Source: a virus
DNA length: 12,895 nucleotides
Strand: one strand, 5' to 3'
UHGV virus genome: UHGV-0267677
Both the position numbers and the translations under genes were made by a program. Shown here piece by piece: positions 1,409-12,631 of this stretch (its first letter is position 1; every line of letters starts with the position of its first letter). The notes under the pieces were generated by a model. The model did no database searches, was not told the DNA's origin, and saw only the letters and a program-made list of their open reading frames with translations.

Positions 1409-2127
1409 AAAACATCGCCGCACAGATGATTAACTTTGACCGTGAGCAGATGCGTCGGATCGCCAACAACATGCCGGAACAGTACGACGAAAAGCCGCAG
1501 GTACAGCAGGTAGCGCAGATCATCAATGGTGTGTTCAGCCAGTTACTGGCAACTTTCCCGGCGAGCCTGGCTAACCGTGACCAGAATGAACTGAACGAAA
1601 TCCGCCGCCAGTGGGTTCTGGCTTTCCGGGAAAACGGGATCACCACGATGGAACAGGTTAACGCAGGAATGCGCGTAGCCCGTCGGCAGAATCGACCATT
1701 CCTGCCATCACCCGGGCAGTTTGTCGCCTGGTGCCGGGAAGAAGCATCCGTTACCGCCGGGCTGCCAAACGCCAGCGAGCTGGTTGATATGGTTTACGAG
1801 TATTGCCGGAAGCGAGGCCTGTATCCGGATGCGGAGTCTTATCCGTGGAAATCAAACGCGCACTACTGGCTGGTTACCAACCTGTATCAGAACATGCGGG
1901 CCAATGCGTTGACTGACGCGGAATTACGGCGCAAGGCTGCCGATGAACTGTCCTGTATGACCGCACGAATTAACCGTGGTGAGGCTATACCTGAACCAGT
2001 AAAACAACTTCCTGTCATGGGCGGTAGACCTCTAAATCGTGCACAGGCTCTGGCGAAGATCGCAGAAATCAAAGCTAAGTTTGGGCTGAAAGGGGGAAAA
2101 GCATTATATAAAAAGATTTCGAAATAA
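1405..2127 (+). CDS. P: Replication protein P (DnaB helicase loader), lambda-type
   Basis: 240-aa translation MKNIAAQMINFDREQMRRIANNMPEQYDEKPQVQQVAQIINGVF... appears almost identical to lambda P from memory. SD GGGGTGGA precedes ATG 1405; stop TAA 2125-2127. Confidence 0.95.
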   Translation: MKNIAAQMINFDREQMRRIANNMPEQYDEKPQVQQVAQIINGVFSQLLATFPASLANRDQNELNEIRRQWVLAFRENGITTMEQVNAGMRVARRQNRPFLPSPGQFVAWCREEASVTAGLPNASELVDMVYEYCRKRGLYPDAESYPWKSNAHYWLVTNLYQNMRANALTDAELRRKAADELSCMTARINRGEAIPEPVKQLPVMGGRPLNRAQALAKIAEIKAKFGLKGGKALYKKISK

Positions 2128-2279
2128 TGCATTGATTTTTATGTTTTTTTCTGTTCAGGTTCTATTGGTTGAAATTAATGCCACTGGGAATAAAAGTTTT
2201 AGCAAAGCCCTTCAAAAATGTTGCTGTTGTAAGCTAGAATAATGCGCCAAATTTACATTGCTGAAACCTGGAATATAGG

Positions 2280-2945
2280 ATGAAAATCATACAGTTACAA
2301 ATGGTATTTTTTTACGATTCATCAACGACTGTCGATTTCGATGGAATGTCGTATTTTATTAGGCAAACTTTTAAAAAGAAGGCAGGTATTGAATTAACAA
2401 ACAATATGATGTTGGGCGTTTTACCTATGGATACCCCACCAGAGATTCCTCGTCTCCAATTGTTTTCTATAGATAATAAATTTAGAGTTCAATGCTCACT
2501 GCAGAGATGTGATTTGTTTTTTGAACGTATGGATTCTGAGCAAGAGGTAGACTTACATTTGTTTCAAGAAGTTTTCGATAGTGTGGTTGATATCCATAAA
2601 GAACTCAATAAGGATATTATCAGAATAGGCTTGGTGGCCGTTAAGGCGGAATTAAACAACAACCCAAACAAAGAGATTGTTAAAAACTATCTTAGTAACA
2701 ACATGCAGAATGATAGCGAAATAATTGAAGATATTAATTTAATGTATAATAAAAAATTCGAGTTTGAGCAGTCCATATTTAATTGTCATTTGTCGATTAT
2801 GTCAGGATATGATCTTGTCAGAGAACAACCAATGCTAGTGAAACAGATCGATGTGAATACAATCGAGAGTTTTATATTTAAAGATAAATATACCGCAGAA
2901 AAAACAAAAAAAGCCTTTTTAAGTAAAGTGAATGAAATTCAGTAA
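2280..2945 (+). CDS. Hypothetical protein, cargo gene 1 of the AT-rich island (no recognisable motif; start uncertain)
   Basis: 221-aa ORF in a strongly AT-rich block with a Lys/Asn/Ile-rich composition. ATG 2280 has poor SD spacing (AGGA abuts the ATG), so a downstream in-frame start is possible. Ends TAA 2943-2945, 14 nt before gene 2. No antisense ORF of comparable quality. Confidence 0.55.
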   Translation: MKIIQLQMVFFYDSSTTVDFDGMSYFIRQTFKKKAGIELTNNMMLGVLPMDTPPEIPRLQLFSIDNKFRVQCSLQRCDLFFERMDSEQEVDLHLFQEVFDSVVDIHKELNKDIIRIGLVAVKAELNNNPNKEIVKNYLSNNMQNDSEIIEDINLMYNKKFEFEQSIFNCHLSIMSGYDLVREQPMLVKQIDVNTIESFIFKDKYTAEKTKKAFLSKVNEIQ

Positions 2946-2959
2946 TGTGAGGTGGCTGA

Positions 2960-3919
2960 ATGAATAAGGATGATAATAAAAAGGATATAAAAAGAATTGC
3001 AAATAATAATGCTATAGTCAACGATGACATGGCAAAAAGAACTGCGCATCATTCACTTTATTCTAATTCACAAGTATCGAATAGTACATCTACGTATACA
3101 GGAGGGGTACAAAAAATTAGTAATTTGCAGATAGATAATAAAACTGCAACAGCTTCAAATAAAGAGCGGGAAAGTATATCTATCAAAGACGCGGCACCAC
3201 AAAACTTAATAAAAACCTCTCTTTTTGTTAATGAAAAAGAAATGTTGCATGAAGCTATAAAATACAGTTCAAAAGCAACTGTGCCGGTGATGGATAATAC
3301 TGTCTCTAATGCCATTTTATCTAATTACTTTGTTAATAATAATTCTGAATCTACAATTTCTTTTAATAAAGAGAATGTAAAAAAATATACAAAAAGTGAT
3401 ATTGATAACATCCTCTGGAAAAATATCAATGATCAACTAACCAATTTTTCGCAAGAGTTGAATAAGAGCAAAAAGAATATTAATGATACTAAAAGAAAAA
3501 TAGGTAAGGTAATGTCTTCATTATCTCAGCAAACTGCAAAGATTGAGCAATTTGATGCAACATTATCAAATGCTGAAAAAGATATACATGAGAAAGTTAA
3601 AAGCTTTGAATCGGAAGTAATTACAGCAAGGAACTCAATGCTGGGTGTCATTGCTTTATTTGCTTCTTTCTTTACTTTCATTTCTATTTCAGTAAACGTA
3701 TTTTCTCGCGATATGTCTTTAAGCATGTCAATCTCAGTTTTGTTAGTGATATGGTCGTGCTTAATTAGCTTTATCTTTGTTTTTATGGCAGGGATTAGCA
3801 AGGGAGGAGCTTTTTTTACAAGCTCATCATTTATTAAGCATGCCATTTTTATGGTTGTGCTTTTTATTTCATCTTTCGCACTCCCTAAAGTTATTTTTAA
3901 TATCTTTGCAATTAGCTGA
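2960..3919 (+). CDS. Hypothetical membrane protein, cargo gene 2 (N/S/T-rich N-terminus, coiled-coil-like middle, three C-terminal TM helices)
   Basis: Strong SD GAGGTGG 4 nt upstream of ATG 2960. Hydrophobic segments at about aa 227-247, 255-278 and 293-317. The preceding ~75 aa (KNINDQL...KVKSFESEV) is heptad-like and charged. Confidence 0.7.
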   Translation: MNKDDNKKDIKRIANNNAIVNDDMAKRTAHHSLYSNSQVSNSTSTYTGGVQKISNLQIDNKTATASNKERESISIKDAAPQNLIKTSLFVNEKEMLHEAIKYSSKATVPVMDNTVSNAILSNYFVNNNSESTISFNKENVKKYTKSDIDNILWKNINDQLTNFSQELNKSKKNINDTKRKIGKVMSSLSQQTAKIEQFDATLSNAEKDIHEKVKSFESEVITARNSMLGVIALFASFFTFISISVNVFSRDMSLSMSISVLLVIWSCLISFIFVFMAGISKGGAFFTSSSFIKHAIFMVVLFISSFALPKVIFNIFAIS

Positions 3920-4020
3920 CTATCAGATGTTATCTTCAGTTGTTTAGGGTTGATTTAAAAGCGAATCTTAATATTTTCAAGTTTTGAATTTAGAAATAAA
4001 AAAGCCATAATATTGTCATC

Positions 4021-4148
4021 GGAGCCTAAAAAACTCCGGTGACTTCTGCGCTAAACGGGGACGTTTATGCGCACACACAATCCAAACTCTCATCTCCATT
4101 CACAGATGCAGAAATGCACCTACGATTTTTTACATTCGGTGTTTTACT
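4021..4148 (+). repeat. Direct repeat copy 1 (~125 bp, ~90% identical to copy 2), containing a conserved GGGA-loop hairpin
   Basis: ggagcctaaaaaactccggtgacttctgcgctaaacggggacgtttatgcgcaca...ccattcacagatgcagaaatgcacct.cgatttttt recurs at 5954-6078 with a few substitutions and no indels. Internal imperfect hairpin tgcgctaaacg-GGGA-cgttta(t)gcgca. Confidence 0.85.
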
Positions 4149-4550
4149 TCGACAGCCAGAATTGGGAGTCTCTATTCGTCTGGCGGCTAAAGGTGATATG
4201 GAAATCGTTATGTTTTGGCCTGAGGTAGTTGTAACTGTTGTAGCAACTATGGCTGTGATCATCATGGTGTCCATTTACTGGGGTTGACGACATGATTTAT
4301 CCGGCGCTATATTCTGTGCGTTGCCGCAAAATCGGCACACGGGATTGGCGTCCCGGGATACTACTCAACGCATACCGCGTTAAGCGGTTTTTTTGTGCGC
4401 TAAGCACGGCTATGCCCAAATTATGGTGGGCTGTGTGAGGGCTTCTTCGGAAGCGCCGGGTTTGAGTAGCCGGTTACGCCAACCTTACACAGTTCACCAC
4501 CAGTCGATTGGCGTCGTTGGTGGTGATGGTTAACCTGATGAGGTGATACT

Positions 4551-5159
4551 ATGACTACTCAATTAGCATTCCACAAAACGACGTTTACCCCGATTTGCCA
4601 CAATAACAGAATTTGGCTTACTGCCACTGAAGTTGGTTTAGCACTGGAATATGCGGACGATAAAGCAGTTCAGCGCATTTACTCTCGGCACTCAGATGAA
4701 TTCACAGATATGATGACAAGGGTGGTCAAAGTGACCACCCCTCGTGGAATGCAGGAGTCTCGAGTATTTAGCCTTCGCGGAGCCCATTTGATCGCCATGT
4801 TTGCTCGTACTCCTGTGGCCAAAGAATTCCGCCGCTGGGTTCTGGATATTCTCGATCGAGAAGTTCAACAATCCCCAATCACAAAACAATTCACTGATAA
4901 CGAACTTTGCACACTCGCCTGGTTATGGCGAGCAAGTGATACGATGTTAACCGCCTGCCAGAACGTTACGCCCCTTCTTCAGGTCGCAGAGCATCGCGAA
5001 GCAGGTAGATTCACTTCAATCGAACAAGAATATCCTCGGATACTCAACAGGGCGCGAGAAATCCTTGCCAGAGAAACGGCGCATGTAAAATTCCAACCGT
5101 GGCAGGATGATAAGTGGAGTCGTGTGTTACCATATTTCCGTCAGAATCTGTTGCAATAA
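4551..5159 (+). CDS. Bro-N domain protein (phage antirepressor/KilA-N-like DNA-binding family), C-terminal half unassigned
   Basis: SD GAGGTGA 5 nt upstream of ATG 4551. N-terminal region ...NRIWLTATEVGLALEY...RVFSLRGAHLIAMFARTPVAKEFRRWVLDIL fits the Bro-N signature I recall (...YSLIMRSRKPEAKAFRKWV...). Confidence 0.75.
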   Translation: MTTQLAFHKTTFTPICHNNRIWLTATEVGLALEYADDKAVQRIYSRHSDEFTDMMTRVVKVTTPRGMQESRVFSLRGAHLIAMFARTPVAKEFRRWVLDILDREVQQSPITKQFTDNELCTLAWLWRASDTMLTACQNVTPLLQVAEHREAGRFTSIEQEYPRILNRAREILARETAHVKFQPWQDDKWSRVLPYFRQNLLQ

Positions 5160-5178
5160 AGTCACTAGTTAGAAATAC

Positions 5179-5218
5179 TGCCAGCATTCTGCGATGACGG
5201 AAGTGCTGGCATTTTTTT
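5179..5218 (+). terminator. Rho-independent terminator downstream of the Bro-N gene
   Basis: 8-bp stem tgccagca/tgctggca (5179-5186 and 5204-5211) followed by T7 (5212-5218), 20 nt after the stop codon at 5157-5159. Confidence 0.6.
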
Positions 5219-5393
5219 GGTAATGTGCGAGTCCATTTCATAAAATACGGGTACTGGAACTGGACGATATAATCTAAAAGATACCATTATCAGTAGCATT
5301 AAAATCGCTATGTGCCGATACGGATATAAGTTATATTGATTGTTCACATACCTTATTGGATATTACTGAGGGGTGTTTATATAAGGTGTAACG

Positions 5394-5903
5394 ATGATGT
5401 GGAACTTTGACAGTGCCGACTTAAGTGCAATAGCAGCAGGCATTTCTGCGTTTGGCACATTAGCCGCAGCGGGGTCGGCGCTTGCAAGTTGGTACACGTC
5501 AAAAAAAGCGCTGCAGCTACAAAATAGAGTTTACCTTTATGAGTCTTTAAAGGCTTGCGCTGAGAGAGCCAATTCATCAGCTAAAGATAAGCGCGGATCT
5601 GAATGGAGCGTTAATGATGCAGCGGATATCATCAGGTGCCTAGTACGGGCGATGGAGATCATCAAGCAGGATAGCCAGCAGAAAGAAGGTAATCAGGCAT
5701 TAATGTTGAAACAGTACTTTGTTAATCTGCTAATAATGGAACTGTACGAGGAAGTTCATAACGGTGATGCGGCTGATTCTGTTTTTAAAAGGACGGAACC
5801 TACACAAGTACTTGATAACTTATGGGGCAAATGGCAGGAGGCTATAGCTTTTTTTGATATTTGGAATTACCCAGTTGCGACTGAGGAAGACTTGGCAGAC
5901 TAA
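5394..5903 (+). CDS. Hypothetical protein with one N-terminal transmembrane/signal-anchor helix
   Basis: SD AAGGTG 5 nt upstream of ATG 5394. aa ~10-33 (LSAIAAGISAFGTLAAAGSALASWY) is hydrophobic; the remainder is soluble and acidic. Possible sigma70-like promoter TTGATT-17-GATATT at 5336-5364. Lies between the terminator and repeat copy 2. Confidence 0.6.
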   Translation: MMWNFDSADLSAIAAGISAFGTLAAAGSALASWYTSKKALQLQNRVYLYESLKACAERANSSAKDKRGSEWSVNDAADIIRCLVRAMEIIKQDSQQKEGNQALMLKQYFVNLLIMELYEEVHNGDAADSVFKRTEPTQVLDNLWGKWQEAIAFFDIWNYPVATEEDLAD

Positions 5904-5953
5904 TTTTCAGCACATTTGATTTCCAATAATCAACCAGCCATAATCATGCCATT

Positions 5954-6078
5954 GGAGCCTGAACAACTCCGGTGACTTCTGCGCTAAACGGGGACGTTTA
6001 TGCGCACATACAATCCAACCTATCTTCTCCATTCACAGATGCAGAAATGCACCTGCGATTTTTTGCATCCAGCGTTTG
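5954..6078 (+). repeat. Direct repeat copy 2, immediately upstream of the ybcN/ninB-like gene
   Basis: See copy 1; the same hairpin is preserved. The repeat ends about 20 nt before the GTG start at 6098. Confidence 0.85.
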
Positions 6079-6097: not shown

Positions 6098-6553
6098 GTG
6101 AACCTCCCACAAGACGGCATAAAATTACATCGCGGTAACTTCACCGCTATCGGTCGGCAGATCCAGCCTTATCTGGAGGAGGGCAAATGCTTTCGCATGG
6201 TGCTTAAACCGTGGCGTGAGAAACGCAGTCTTTCCCAGAATGCACTCAGCCACATGTGGTACAGCGAAATCAGTGAATACCTCATCAGCAGGGGTAAAAC
6301 GTTCGCCACTCCAGCTTGGGTAAAAGATGCTCTCAAACACACATATCTCGGTTATGAAACCAAAGATCTGGTTGATGTCGTAACCGGTGATATCACCACT
6401 ATCCAGTCGTTACGCCATACCTCCGATCTTGATACCGGAGAGATGTATGTCTTCCTGTGTAAGGTCGAAGCCTGGGCGGTGAATATTGGCTGCCATCTGA
6501 CTATTCCGCAGAGCTGCGAGTTCCAGCAGCTCCGTGACAAGCAGGAGGCGTAA
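6098..6553 (+). CDS. ybcN: NinB/Orf-family recombination protein (YbcN-like)
   Basis: 151 aa, GTG start with SD GGAGG 6 nt upstream. The motif [15 protein letters not shown] resembles the lambda Orf/NinB core. Synteny with ninE-ybcO-rusA-ylcG-quuD-nmpC matches the DLP12 gene order. Confidence 0.85.
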
Positions 6554-7586: not shown

Positions 7587-7970
7587 ATGCGTGATATTCA
7601 GATGGTTCTTGAGCGTTGGGGAGCGTGGGCGGCTAATAATCATGAAGATGTGACCTGGTCGTCCATTGCCGCCGGTTTTAAGGGATTAATTACTTCAAAA
7701 GTAAAATCTCGCCCGCAATGTTGTGACGATGACGCGATGATCATTTGCGGGTGCATGGCCCGTCTGAAAAAGAACAACAGCGATTTGCACGATTTATTAG
7801 TAGATTATTATGTAGTCGGTATGACATTCATGTCACTGGCAGGTAAGCATTGCTGCTCTGATGGTTATATCGGGAAAAGGTTACAGAAGGCTGAGGGCAT
7901 AATTGAAGGGATGTTAATGGCATTAGATATCCGGTTAGAGATGGATATCGTTGTTAATAACTCTAATTAA
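7587..7970 (+). CDS. quuD: Late-gene antiterminator Q (phage 82/DLP12 QuuD type)
   Basis: 127 aa from ATG 7587 (SD GGAGTAAG): [26 protein letters not shown]...[16 protein letters not shown]... The track start at 7533 lacks an SD. Stop TAA 7968-7970. Confidence 0.9.
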
Positions 7971-8159: not shown

Positions 8160-9257
8160 TTAGAACTGGTAAACCAGACCTACAGCAACGATGTCATCAG
8201 TGCTTACACCGAGTGCTTTAGTGAAGTCATTTTTGTCAAGCAGGTTGATTTTGTAATCAACGAAAGTAGACATATTTTTGTTGAAGTAATAGGTTGCACC
8301 TACATCAACATATTTGACTAAGTCCTGATCGCCCCATACTCCAAGATCCTTACCTTTAGATTGCAGGTAAGCAACGGACGGACGCAGACCGAAATCGAAC
8401 TGATATTGTGCAACAGCTTCGAAGTTTTGGGCTTTATTAGCAACGAAGTGATCAGCAAATACAGTCATATTCTGGGTTTCAGAATAGGTAGTGGCCAGGT
8501 AAATGTTGTTAGCGTCATATTTCAGACCTGCGGCCCAAACTTCTGCATTTTTACCGGAAGCAAATACTTCAGGAAGAACTTTCCCTGCATTAACTTGAGT
8601 GTCGGTACGATCAGATTTCGCATAAGTTGCACCGATACCGAATCCTTCGTATTCATAGGTAGCAGAGAAACCGAAGCCATCACCGTTACCTTCAGTGTAG
8701 TTATCGAAATCGCTACGATCGTTTTTGCCTTGGTACTGAGCAGCAAAGTTCAGACCATCAACCAGACCAAAGAAGTCGTTGTTACGATAGGTTGCAACAC
8801 CAGTGGTGCGACCAGTCATGAACACATCTGTTTGGGTCCAGGTATCGCCACCGAATTCTGGCAGAACGTCAGTCCACGCACCGATGTCGTATGCTACACC
8901 GTAGTTACGGCCGTAATCGATTGAGCCGTAGTCACCGAATTTCAGGCCTGCAAATGCAAGACGGGTTTTGTCTTTGGAGGAACCTTGAGATTCAGCGCGG
9001 TTGCCTTTGAATTCATATTCCCACTGACCGAAACCAGTCAGTTGATCGTTGATTTGGGTTTCACCTTTGAAGCCAAGACGGGCATAAGTAGTATCACCAT
9101 CATCTGCATCATTAGAGGAGAAGTAGTGCTTAGCATTAACTTTCCCGTACAGATCCAGCTTGTTACTGTCTTTATTATAAATTTCAGCTGCCTGAGCAGA
9201 CATCGCCATCAGTACTGATGCAGCTACAGCAGAAATTGCCACTGTTAATTTTTTCAT
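8160..9257 (-). CDS. nmpC: Outer-membrane general porin, NmpC/Lc (OmpC/OmpF family), apparently intact
   Basis: 365 aa with signal peptide [30 protein letters not shown], the typical porin block LYGKV...[26 protein letters not shown], and C-terminal ...VGLVYQF. Sits between Q and the holin on the opposite strand, as nmpC does in DLP12. Confidence 0.95.
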
Positions 9258-9685
9258 CGTGAGCCCTTTTTTTTGAACTATTATTAAAAAATGATGTCAC
9301 TGCGCGATAAATATTCATCTAATCAATATGATTATTTCAAGATGTAAGTTTTGGTTTCTCGTTTGATTTGTGAAGTAGATCTCTATTTTTATCTGAACTT
9401 TTTTCTGTCGAATCCTATTCATGGCTCTTGGCTGAATAAAAATAAATCTATTAGCCAATTTATATTAACGGTTGTTATTTATAAGTGCTCTATGATTTGA
9501 AGGTTCAATTTAAATCGGCTAAAAATAACACTGGAAATTATTTGTTGGTTATTTGTTGAGATTTGCTTATGTATTTGTAGTGGTGTTTTCAATACTCGGT
9601 AGCATTCTCGCAAATATCATTTAGTGGTTTACGTACGTAAAAAATTGGTTATGCTGTTAAGAGTGGTTACTTCGTCACACAGCTT

Positions 9686-9716
9686 AAACCCGCCGTCGAG
9701 CGGGTTTTTCCATTTT
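9686..9716 (+). terminator. Rho-independent terminator in the nmpC-holin intergenic region (+ strand)
   Basis: Stem aaacccgc/gcgggttt (9686-9693 and 9700-9707), loop cgtcga, followed by ttccatttttt. Confidence 0.6.
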
Positions 9717-9830
9717 TTGAGTCTTGATATTAGCTGATAACCCAATACCTGAGTTATTCACTGACTCCGAGTCTGTTACGTTTCGTAGTATTCCCTCAAT
9801 TTACACCCGCTTTGTCTGCGAGGTGGGGTT

Positions 9831-10046
9831 ATGAAATCCATGGATAAGTTAACAACGGGTGTCGCCTATGGCACCTCAGCAGGTAGTGCCGGTTACTGGT
9901 TTTTACAGCTGCTCGATAAAGTCACGCCCTCACAGTGGGCAGCAATAGGTGTGCTGGGTAGCCTGGTATTTGGCCTGCTGACGTACCTGACAAACCTTTA
10001 TTTCAAGATTAAAGAAGACAAGCGTAAGGCTGCACGGGGAGAGTAA
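9831..10046 (+). CDS. essD: Class II holin, phage 21 S-type pinholin with dual-start motif (EssD/EssQ-like)
   Basis: 71 aa [31 protein letters not shown]...[11 protein letters not shown] with the Met1-Lys-Ser-Met4 dual start, two TM segments and a charged C-terminus. SD GAGGTGGGG upstream. Confidence 0.9.
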
Positions 10047-12280: not shown

Positions 12281-12631
12281 ATGCCATCACGAATCCCACG
12301 CGCCTGCCGTAAGCGTGGATGTGCAGGTACAACCACAGACAGTTCTGGTTACTGCGATAAACATCGTGGCGAAGGATGGGTACAGCATCAACGCGGACTG
12401 AGCCGCCACCAGCGTGGCTATGGCTCGAAATGGGATGCCATACGTGCGCGCATACTGAAGCGTGATAATCATCTGTGTCAGAACTGCCTGCGCAATGGGA
12501 GAGCCGTTGAAGCCAGAACTGTGGACCACATCATTCCGAAAGCTCATGGTGGCACGGATGCAGACAGTAACCTGCAGAGTCTGTGCTGGCCCTGTCATAA
12601 AGCAAAAACAGCGCGCGAACGCATCAATTGA
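12281..12631 (+). CDS. HNH homing-type endonuclease (packaging-associated)
   Basis: 116 aa with Cys pairs (CRKRGC...CDKH, CQNC, CWPCH) and the HNH core DHIIPKAHGGTDADSNLQSLCWPCH. Lies immediately upstream of the small terminase, as in HK97-like cos phages. Confidence 0.9.
   Translation: MPSRIPRACRKRGCAGTTTDSSGYCDKHRGEGWVQHQRGLSRHQRGYGSKWDAIRARILKRDNHLCQNCLRNGRAVEARTVDHIIPKAHGGTDADSNLQSLCWPCHKAKTARERIN

Follow-up and report, generated by a model that had tools for sequence, protein, structure and literature searches.

What function is served by two genes that resemble no described family and that a lambdoid prophage carries between its replication gene P and its nin region? The pair lies in a stretch of 12,895 nucleotides (nt) from the virus genome UHGV-0267677 (the window, to which all coordinates refer unless another locus is named), which is part of a lambdoid, DLP12-like prophage and is near-identical to DNA in Escherichia coli chromosomes. 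An earlier note had described positions 2128-4020 as an AT-rich cargo island and a candidate phage-exclusion or defence module. Our analysis, which rests on sequence comparison, suggests that the island is a self-contained prophage cargo operon, or ‘moron’, that most likely protects the lysogen from other phages, a reading to which we assign a probability of roughly 45%. Support for a role in defence is circumstantial and comes from three directions: the cassette is allelic to the anti-phage gene SNIPE, its two genes are paired in eight lineages, and distant relatives of its first gene occur in operons that end in Fic, PIN or PDC-M32B-like proteins.

The compositional island is readily confirmed. 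In 300-nt windows the G+C content is 0.52-0.58 at 1501-2100, drops to 0.26-0.36 across 2101-4050 and returns to 0.46-0.51 thereafter. Its limits, however, differ from those first proposed. In an alignment to 152 deposited phage records, lambda-type P homology ends at query position 689, which corresponds to window position 2093 and lies 34 nt before the P stop codon. A blastn comparison with the phage PhiR26_1 gives 97.7% identity over 1-2093 and 99.9% over 4047-5175, with nothing alike between these blocks. Because similarity to P and to PhiR26_1 stops at 2093 and resumes at 4047, the exchangeable cassette comprises positions 2094-4046 (1,953 bp; G+C 0.313, as compared to 0.472 in the remaining window) and not 2128-4020. 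It therefore starts inside P and supplies the last 11 codons of that gene. The corresponding segment of PhiR26_1 consists of the end of P, ren and a gene annotated PD-lambda-1. The genes upstream of the cassette, O (389-1408) and P (1405-2127), are of the lambda type, and P is succeeded by ren, whose start overlaps its end, in phages 434 and SfI and in the PhiR series; the placement of the island in the ren slot is thus upheld, and ren itself is gone from this prophage, displaced by the cassette. Two properties by which a moron can be recognized are found here, namely presence or absence between conserved flanks, as seen in the PhiR26_1 flanks and in the differing cargo of sister phages, and a distinct base composition (31.3% versus 47.2% G+C), in which all eight lineages that carry the pair are alike.

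The contents of the slot vary widely among sister phages: PhiR26_1 carries ren and PD-lambda-1, PhiR34_1 and PhiR68_2 carry ren, emrE, ybcK, ybcL and ybcM, PhiR5_1 carries ren and small open reading frames (ORFs), and PhiR30_1 carries ren together with genes for an acyltransferase and an outer-membrane lipoprotein. These varied contents indicate that the interval from P to ninB is a genuine cargo hotspot, in which defence genes are possible but not exclusive. PD-lambda-1 has been renamed SNIPE, a membrane-bound nuclease that blocks lambda, cleaves phage DNA during injection, acts at the membrane and interacts with ManYZ (10.1101/2025.11.03.685801). This validated, membrane-anchored anti-phage gene from the Laub laboratory occupies the same interval as our cassette, between P and a Rha/Ant-like gene, and does so within the near-identical flanks of PhiR26_1 described above. 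The two kinds of cargo are nevertheless distinct, as SNIPE is a single 500-aa protein that is encoded on the opposite strand and contains an N-terminal transmembrane segment, DUF4041 and a nuclease domain. It shows no homology to either gene of the cassette, neither of which is matched by the PADLOC collection even though this includes PD-lambda-1. In addition, ren is kept beside SNIPE in PhiR26_1, whereas it has been lost here.

The cassette contains two co-directional ORFs on the + strand, gene 1 (2280-2945, 221 aa) and gene 2 (2960-3919, 319 aa), which can be read directly from the window as the earlier note had done. They are separated by 14 nt, a spacing that implies a single operon, and gene 2 is preceded by the strong Shine-Dalgarno sequence noticed previously (GAGGTGG, + strand, 2949-2955, 4 nt before the ATG). 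A further mark of a moron would be a promoter and a terminator of its own. A promoter-like site, TTCAAA-18 nt-TAGAAT, is located at 2211-2240 (+) about 40 nt upstream of gene 1, and its designation is based on a consensus match only. In most of the eight lineages a TAnAAT-like hexamer follows TTCAAA, TTTAAA or TTTATA at a constant distance from the start codon, and the surrounding intergenic DNA is otherwise unalignable across them. A scan for terminators found no canonical one for the cassette, only a hairpin at ~4015-4043 (-17.1 kcal/mol, z -2.5) that lacks a T-run and hence is not a canonical intrinsic terminator.

This hairpin lies within the first copy of a 150-nt direct repeat. Copy 1 (3995-4144, +) spans the right cassette junction, and copy 2 (5928-6077, +) is positioned directly upstream of ninB/ybcN (6098-6553). 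A repeat search and alignment showed that the copies are 88% identical, and the repeated sequence also corresponds to the beginning of the block shared with PhiR26_1 on the right. The repeat probably serves as a common border where one cargo module is swapped for another, plausibly by recombination. Just outside the cassette, in DNA of normal G+C content, is a small ORF (4039-4287, +) with a hydrophobic C-terminal segment that is unannotated in the RefSeq copy; a match to phrog_4612 (unknown function, E 4e-42) covers its final 57 residues.

Gene 1, the A component of the operons considered below (RefSeq WP_000691849.1, ‘hypothetical protein’), encodes a soluble protein in which hydropathy analysis finds no transmembrane segment. 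Neither it nor gene 2 (WP_001030591.1, likewise a ‘hypothetical protein’) belongs to a Pfam, NCBIfam or PADLOC family, and their only PHROGs matches, phrog_24110 for gene 1 and phrog_25335 for gene 2, are small groups of unknown function, in agreement with the statement in the earlier note that neither protein is recognizable. A Pfam scan reveals no DNA-binding domain in gene 1, and no solved structure in the PDB is matched by sequence by the protein or its superfamily. Its AlphaFold model, of fair confidence although computed from a shallow alignment, predicts a duplicated alpha+beta sandwich (predicted local distance difference test (pLDDT) score 81.7, predicted template modelling (pTM) score 0.80). 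The resemblance of this model to S-adenosylmethionine decarboxylase (AdoMetDC)-like and guanido-kinase-like folds is confined to topology (4-10% identity, TM-scores of 0.35-0.40, no PDB-sequence profile match) with nothing to indicate shared catalysis, and gene 1 displays neither the sequence homology nor the catalytic residues of AdoMetDC-like enzymes. Nor is a SecB-like chaperone, as contained in toxin-antitoxin-chaperone systems such as CmdTAC, supported: gene 1 does not match the PD-T4-9_C model and SecB is absent from both the sequence and the fold matches. Seven positions are nearly invariant in the gene 1 superfamily (P53, P57, R76, R115, N168, D191 and N193), and in the model they occupy predicted beta-strands or the ends of these, which suggests that they may form a binding surface.

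Gene 2 is predicted to be an inner-membrane protein, and its only matches in Pfam and the PDB are generic coiled coils. It consists of three parts that differ markedly in their conservation among 26 homologue clusters, all of which are from Enterobacterales. Residues 1-142 (2960-3385, +) are rich in Asn, Ser, Lys and Thr, hypervariable and predicted to be disordered (pLDDT <50), with a mean pairwise identity of 19%. Residues 143-224 (3386-3631, +; 41% identity) form a long coiled-coil helix directly continuous with the first transmembrane helix, and residues 225-319 (3632-3916, +; 77% identity) contain three very strongly conserved transmembrane helices, where most of the invariant columns of the alignment are found. 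The structural model is confident in the helical C-terminal half only, in which it places a single helix at 145-249 (pLDDT ~85) followed by helices at 254-281 and 289-316. By the positive-inside rule, and in keeping with the lack of a signal peptide, residues 1-224 are presumably cytoplasmic, and the C-terminus is predicted to be periplasmic. The layout of a soluble protein followed by a multi-pass membrane partner, which had been read from the DNA, is therefore retained, with three C-terminal hydrophobic helices in gene 2 and none in gene 1.

The cassette is rare. It is present in 22 of 5,426 complete E. coli genomes (0.4%), always at 99.5% identity or above, in prophages integrated at a minimum of three attachment sites (ybhC/lambda att, icd and argU/DLP12 att), and searches with DNA and protein found it in none of 50,697 deposited phage genomes or 72,556 plasmids. 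A native lysogen is strain AR_0077 (NZ_CP026755.1, 387751-389390). Genomes labelled Klebsiella aerogenes, Citrobacter werkmanii, Kosakonia oryzae, Leclercia, Scandinavium and Erwinia rhapontici contain diverged copies, as do prophage contigs of IMG/VR; scans of GTDB species-representative genomes returned pattern matches and no confirmed relative. Across the resulting eight lineages, gene 1 is 38-64% and gene 2 44-65% identical, and the G+C content of the pair is 31-35%, as compared to 42-58% in the hosts or flanks. Wherever a locus extends upstream of the gene 2 homologue, the gene immediately before it is a homologue of gene 1. The pair is thus consistently co-inherited. It follows P in four lineages and is elsewhere found in other phage contexts or in remnants that have lost nearly all phage genes, including one beside icd in Scandinavium and one at a contig end in Leclercia.

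Two decayed copies show that the pair can be lost. In the icd-site prophage of E. coli AHB18 (NZ_OZ546938.1; locus L002, 6396-7165), IS1B is inserted at codon 82 of gene 1 and a deletion has removed the equivalent of window 2524-4108, which takes in the remainder of gene 1, the whole of gene 2 and the junction. In IMG genome 2778261689 (loci L027, 8358-8432, and L028, 1-39), gene 1 is interrupted by IS10, whose insertion duplicated a 9-bp target (window 2628-2636), and gene 2 remains intact and 99% identical. As both the IS1-linked deletion and the IS10 insertion are tolerated, the pair is dispensable, which fits an accessory module and is also consistent with gene 1 acting as an activator or sensor. 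The intact gene 2 behind an interrupted gene 1 is weak evidence against an essential antidote, since the insertion may silence gene 2.

Insight into what gene 1 might do comes from its distant relatives. An exhaustive HMMER search with the enterobacterial profile retrieved 152 representative proteins at E <=1e-3, mostly 220-245 aa in length, and the family, of ~150 representative clusters at 50% identity, extends from Enterobacterales to Omnitrophota, Planctomycetes, Gemmatimonadetes and Tectomicrobia. Profile-profile comparison with hhalign joins the clade from Enterobacterales to the environmental one at a probability of 98.8% (E 6e-17, 209 of 221 columns). Among 60 relatives we found no Pfam, NCBIfam or PADLOC family and no PDB relative by sequence; isolated PADLOC matches involve one member each, to PD-T4-9_C (5e-5) and to a 2TM effector model (0.005). 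We inspected 85 environmental loci, five of them genome contexts and 80 metagenome loci. In these the gene 1 homologue heads a tightly packed operon whose genes lie within a few bases of one another, followed by an adjacent B gene in 73 loci and by a C gene in 60 (examples are L015 5001-6942, L018 4001-5922, L120 3995-5812 and L016/L017; the B and C genes of L018 are uncalled in the source annotation). B belongs mostly to one family, whose C-terminal ~110 residues match positions 256-370 of PDC-M32A (48 of 70 members, best E 6.5e-12). C, in contrast to the conserved leading gene, is of several kinds. At 40 loci it is a family of 85-144 aa that matches PDC-M32B (best E 2.4e-9), the PDC-M32B models matching 23, 8 and 2 members for a total of 33 matches among 60 C members. 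Seven loci instead encode a Fic protein with an HPYxNGNGH motif that is also recognized by SoFic and PDC-S04 models, one encodes a PIN domain (Pfam E 5.5e-7) and two encode DUF7689 (Pfam), a domain that we did not find in the searchable literature; the C proteins of the remaining loci are of several other types with no function-identifying family match.

A conserved leading gene followed by swappable terminal genes for toxins or defence candidates is the pattern of a regulated toxic-effector system. Gene 2 does not derive from the environmental partners by fusion, as hhalign probabilities to the B and C components are 0.12% and 0.02%, respectively. Since it is unrelated to either, the enterobacterial prophage version is a two-gene variant in which a membrane protein takes the position that toxin-type domains have elsewhere. 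The window differs from each of the systems to which the family leads. Seven environmental operons end in a Fic protein, the domain of defence or toxin genes such as SoFic, PDC-S04 and Doc-type toxins, but the window lacks a Fic domain and has a membrane protein in the effector position. Similarly, B and C of the environmental operons match PDC-M32A and PDC-M32B, whereas the window proteins match neither, and adjacent PDC-M32A and PDC-M32B matches are found only in the distant environmental operons. The PDC-M32 models do not contain the gene 1 family. PDC systems owe their candidate status to ‘guilt-by-embedding’ within loci for BREX, DISARM and type I restriction-modification, and PDC-M32 lacks experimental validation.

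The closest parallel in layout is RexAB of phage lambda. In Rex a cytoplasmic sensor triggers a membrane effector, and RexA and RexB resemble our pair in being carried by a lambdoid prophage as two adjacent co-directional genes, the first soluble and the second a multi-pass inner-membrane protein. The logic that we propose for the pair is the same, and ren, which by its annotation protects lambda from Rex, is the very gene that the pair replaces. The proteins themselves are different. A comparison of the gene 1 family with RexA of phage SfI gave an hhalign probability of 0.25%, and hence no sequence relationship. RexB was not compared directly with gene 2, whose only match is phrog_25335 and whose disordered N-terminus, coiled coil and three transmembrane helices are unlike the small, all-membrane RexB. 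Furthermore, RexAB resides beside cI and is co-transcribed with it, whereas the pair is located outside the immunity region, downstream of O and P and ~2.8 kb from the repressor gene.

On this basis, a working model can be outlined. Gene 1 would be a cytoplasmic sensor or regulator, drawn from a family that is coupled across phyla to interchangeable toxic effectors, and gene 2 would be the effector of the enterobacterial version, with its cytoplasmic coiled coil driving oligomerization. Its three highly conserved transmembrane helices, once brought together, would disturb the inner membrane and act through depolarization, with abortive infection as the result, or through a block to entry. Of these outcomes we favour abortive infection over direct exclusion, because the other effectors of the family are cytoplasmic toxins. 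A more ambitious version of the model, in which gene 1 founds a widely distributed family of sensors or regulators that defines a new class of modular anti-phage systems, whose swappable effectors are PDC-M32B-like, Fic, PIN or DUF7689 proteins or, in enterobacterial prophages, the coiled-coil membrane protein, and the pair is a minimal two-gene form that kills or arrests infected cells via the membrane, is possible but in our estimate rather doubtful.

An anti-phage module is the best-supported reading of the cassette on account of the modularity of the effectors, the allelism with SNIPE, the co-inheritance of the pair, its base composition and promoter-like element, and its dispensability. 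The original claim of a defence module thus keeps its foundations, namely the island, the linked soluble and membrane proteins and the ren slot, and gains circumstantial support. Several observations weigh against it. None of the 5,027 PADLOC models (PADLOC-DB v2.0.0) matches either protein at E values up to 1, and the slot is not specific to defence, as it holds emrE, ybcK, ybcL and ybcM, or the acyltransferase and lipoprotein genes, in sister phages. The fold of gene 1 offers no clue to function, with Foldseek searches of the model against the PDB and BFVD giving no functional lead. The module is rare in complete E. coli genomes and absent from the deposited phages, and neither WP_000691849.1 nor WP_001030591.1 appears in the searchable literature or the DefensePredictor supplements. 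The environmental relatives are only 20-27% identical to gene 1, their B component is missing from the window, gene 2 is unrelated to B or C, and PDC-M32, which provides the link at the level of the superfamily, is itself only a candidate system. Finally, we infer rather than observe that the pair is expressed in the lysogen, and the same holds for the sensor and effector roles, the membrane damage and the anti-phage phenotype.

Several of these points would also be expected if the cassette had nothing to do with defence and instead served host physiology, the envelope or virulence, or acted for its carrier in the switch from replication to late functions or in the timing of lysis. The cargo of the sister phages is compatible with such roles, no defence model matches the pair, and because it sits within the rightward early operon, with P before it and the nin genes after it, it may be transcribed during lytic growth. 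We nonetheless regard this explanation as unlikely. None of the 152 deposited phages that share the P gene carries the pair, which indicates that it is not needed for the phage life cycle, and relatives occur outside of phages in operons with toxin-type genes.

Another way to protect the lysogen would be direct superinfection exclusion, in which gene 2 blocks genome injection, for example via a conserved host membrane component, with gene 1 as an accessory or stabilizing factor and with survival of the cell. Across genera the transmembrane domain is conserved at 77% even though the remainder of the protein diverges, as would be expected from contact with a conserved host membrane partner, and this conservation accords as well with such contact as with the membrane-perturbing role proposed above. 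The module is prophage-borne, as this explanation would have it, and SNIPE, its allelic counterpart, likewise works at the membrane while DNA is injected and has ManYZ as an interaction partner. Injection blockers that are already known, among them P22 SieA, HK97 gp15 and T4 Imm, however, are single small membrane proteins, whereas here a soluble partner is strictly co-inherited. The coupling of gene 1 relatives to the cytoplasmic toxin domains Fic and PIN points instead to a regulated toxic effector, and neither protein is homologous to any exclusion protein in PHROGs or PADLOC, so that we judge direct exclusion to be distinctly improbable.

Equally hard to favour is a toxin-antitoxin-like addiction module without a primary role in defence, in which gene 1 would hold a membrane toxin, gene 2, in check and thereby stabilize the prophage or its remnant, since its attractions (the tight linkage, the classical Fic and PIN toxin domains that come last in related operons, the persistence of the pair in the decayed remnants of Scandinavium and Leclercia, and the environmental locus L014, which has a Bro-N gene and a gene pair for a ParE toxin and an RH3-domain protein as neighbours) are offset by an IS10 insertion that is difficult to square with an indispensable antidote, albeit one that may be polar, by the large size of gene 1 for an antitoxin and its lack of a DNA-binding domain, and by an overlap with the anti-phage reading itself, many toxin-antitoxin systems being defence systems.

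The remainder of the window holds features that bear on its prophage character more generally. To the right of the cassette is an Ant/Rha-like gene (4551-5159, +) with Bro-N and P22AR C-terminal domains, which is intact in the window but split into two ORFs in the annotation of E. coli ECCTRSRTH03 (L001 11424-12032), presumably owing to a frameshift. A second dip in G+C content (0.38-0.41 at 5101-5550) contains a 169-aa ORF (5394-5903, +) with a hydrophobic N-terminus that matches phrog_1779 (unknown function) and no Pfam family; it is absent from some similar prophages (L023/L030) and may be another cargo gene. Beyond ninB/ybcN follow ninE, ybcO, rusA and Q (~7593-7970), with the lysis genes starting at 9831. 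Between Q and the lysis genes is an OmpC/Lc-type porin gene (8160-9257, -), the classic porin moron of DLP12/PA-2-like prophages, followed by a stretch of 29-34% G+C (9150-9750). Near the end of the window, a 116-aa ORF (12281-12631, +) has the cysteine/histidine pattern of an HNH endonuclease and is typical of the HNH genes found beside phage terminase genes.

In its layout the cassette is familiar, being prophage cargo with a probable defence role in which a sensor is combined with a membrane effector. Both protein families, and the link of gene 1 to a broad, unnamed family of A-B-effector operons, are by contrast undescribed in the searchable libraries and literature. Uncharacterized prophage defence candidates are common, and should the pair have no part in defence it would be one more uncharacterized moron; the cassette itself is real and coherent, and the window documents the lambdoid P-to-ninB interval as an exchangeable cargo slot that is bounded by a repeated 150-nt sequence and from which ren has been displaced. 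If its function is indeed anti-phage, the defences known from prophages of E. coli and related bacteria would gain a new protein family pair that current detectors miss, and a tractable host would open to genetics the much larger family of A-B-effector operons of uncultured bacteria, whose effectors include Fic, PIN and the PDC-M32 candidate.

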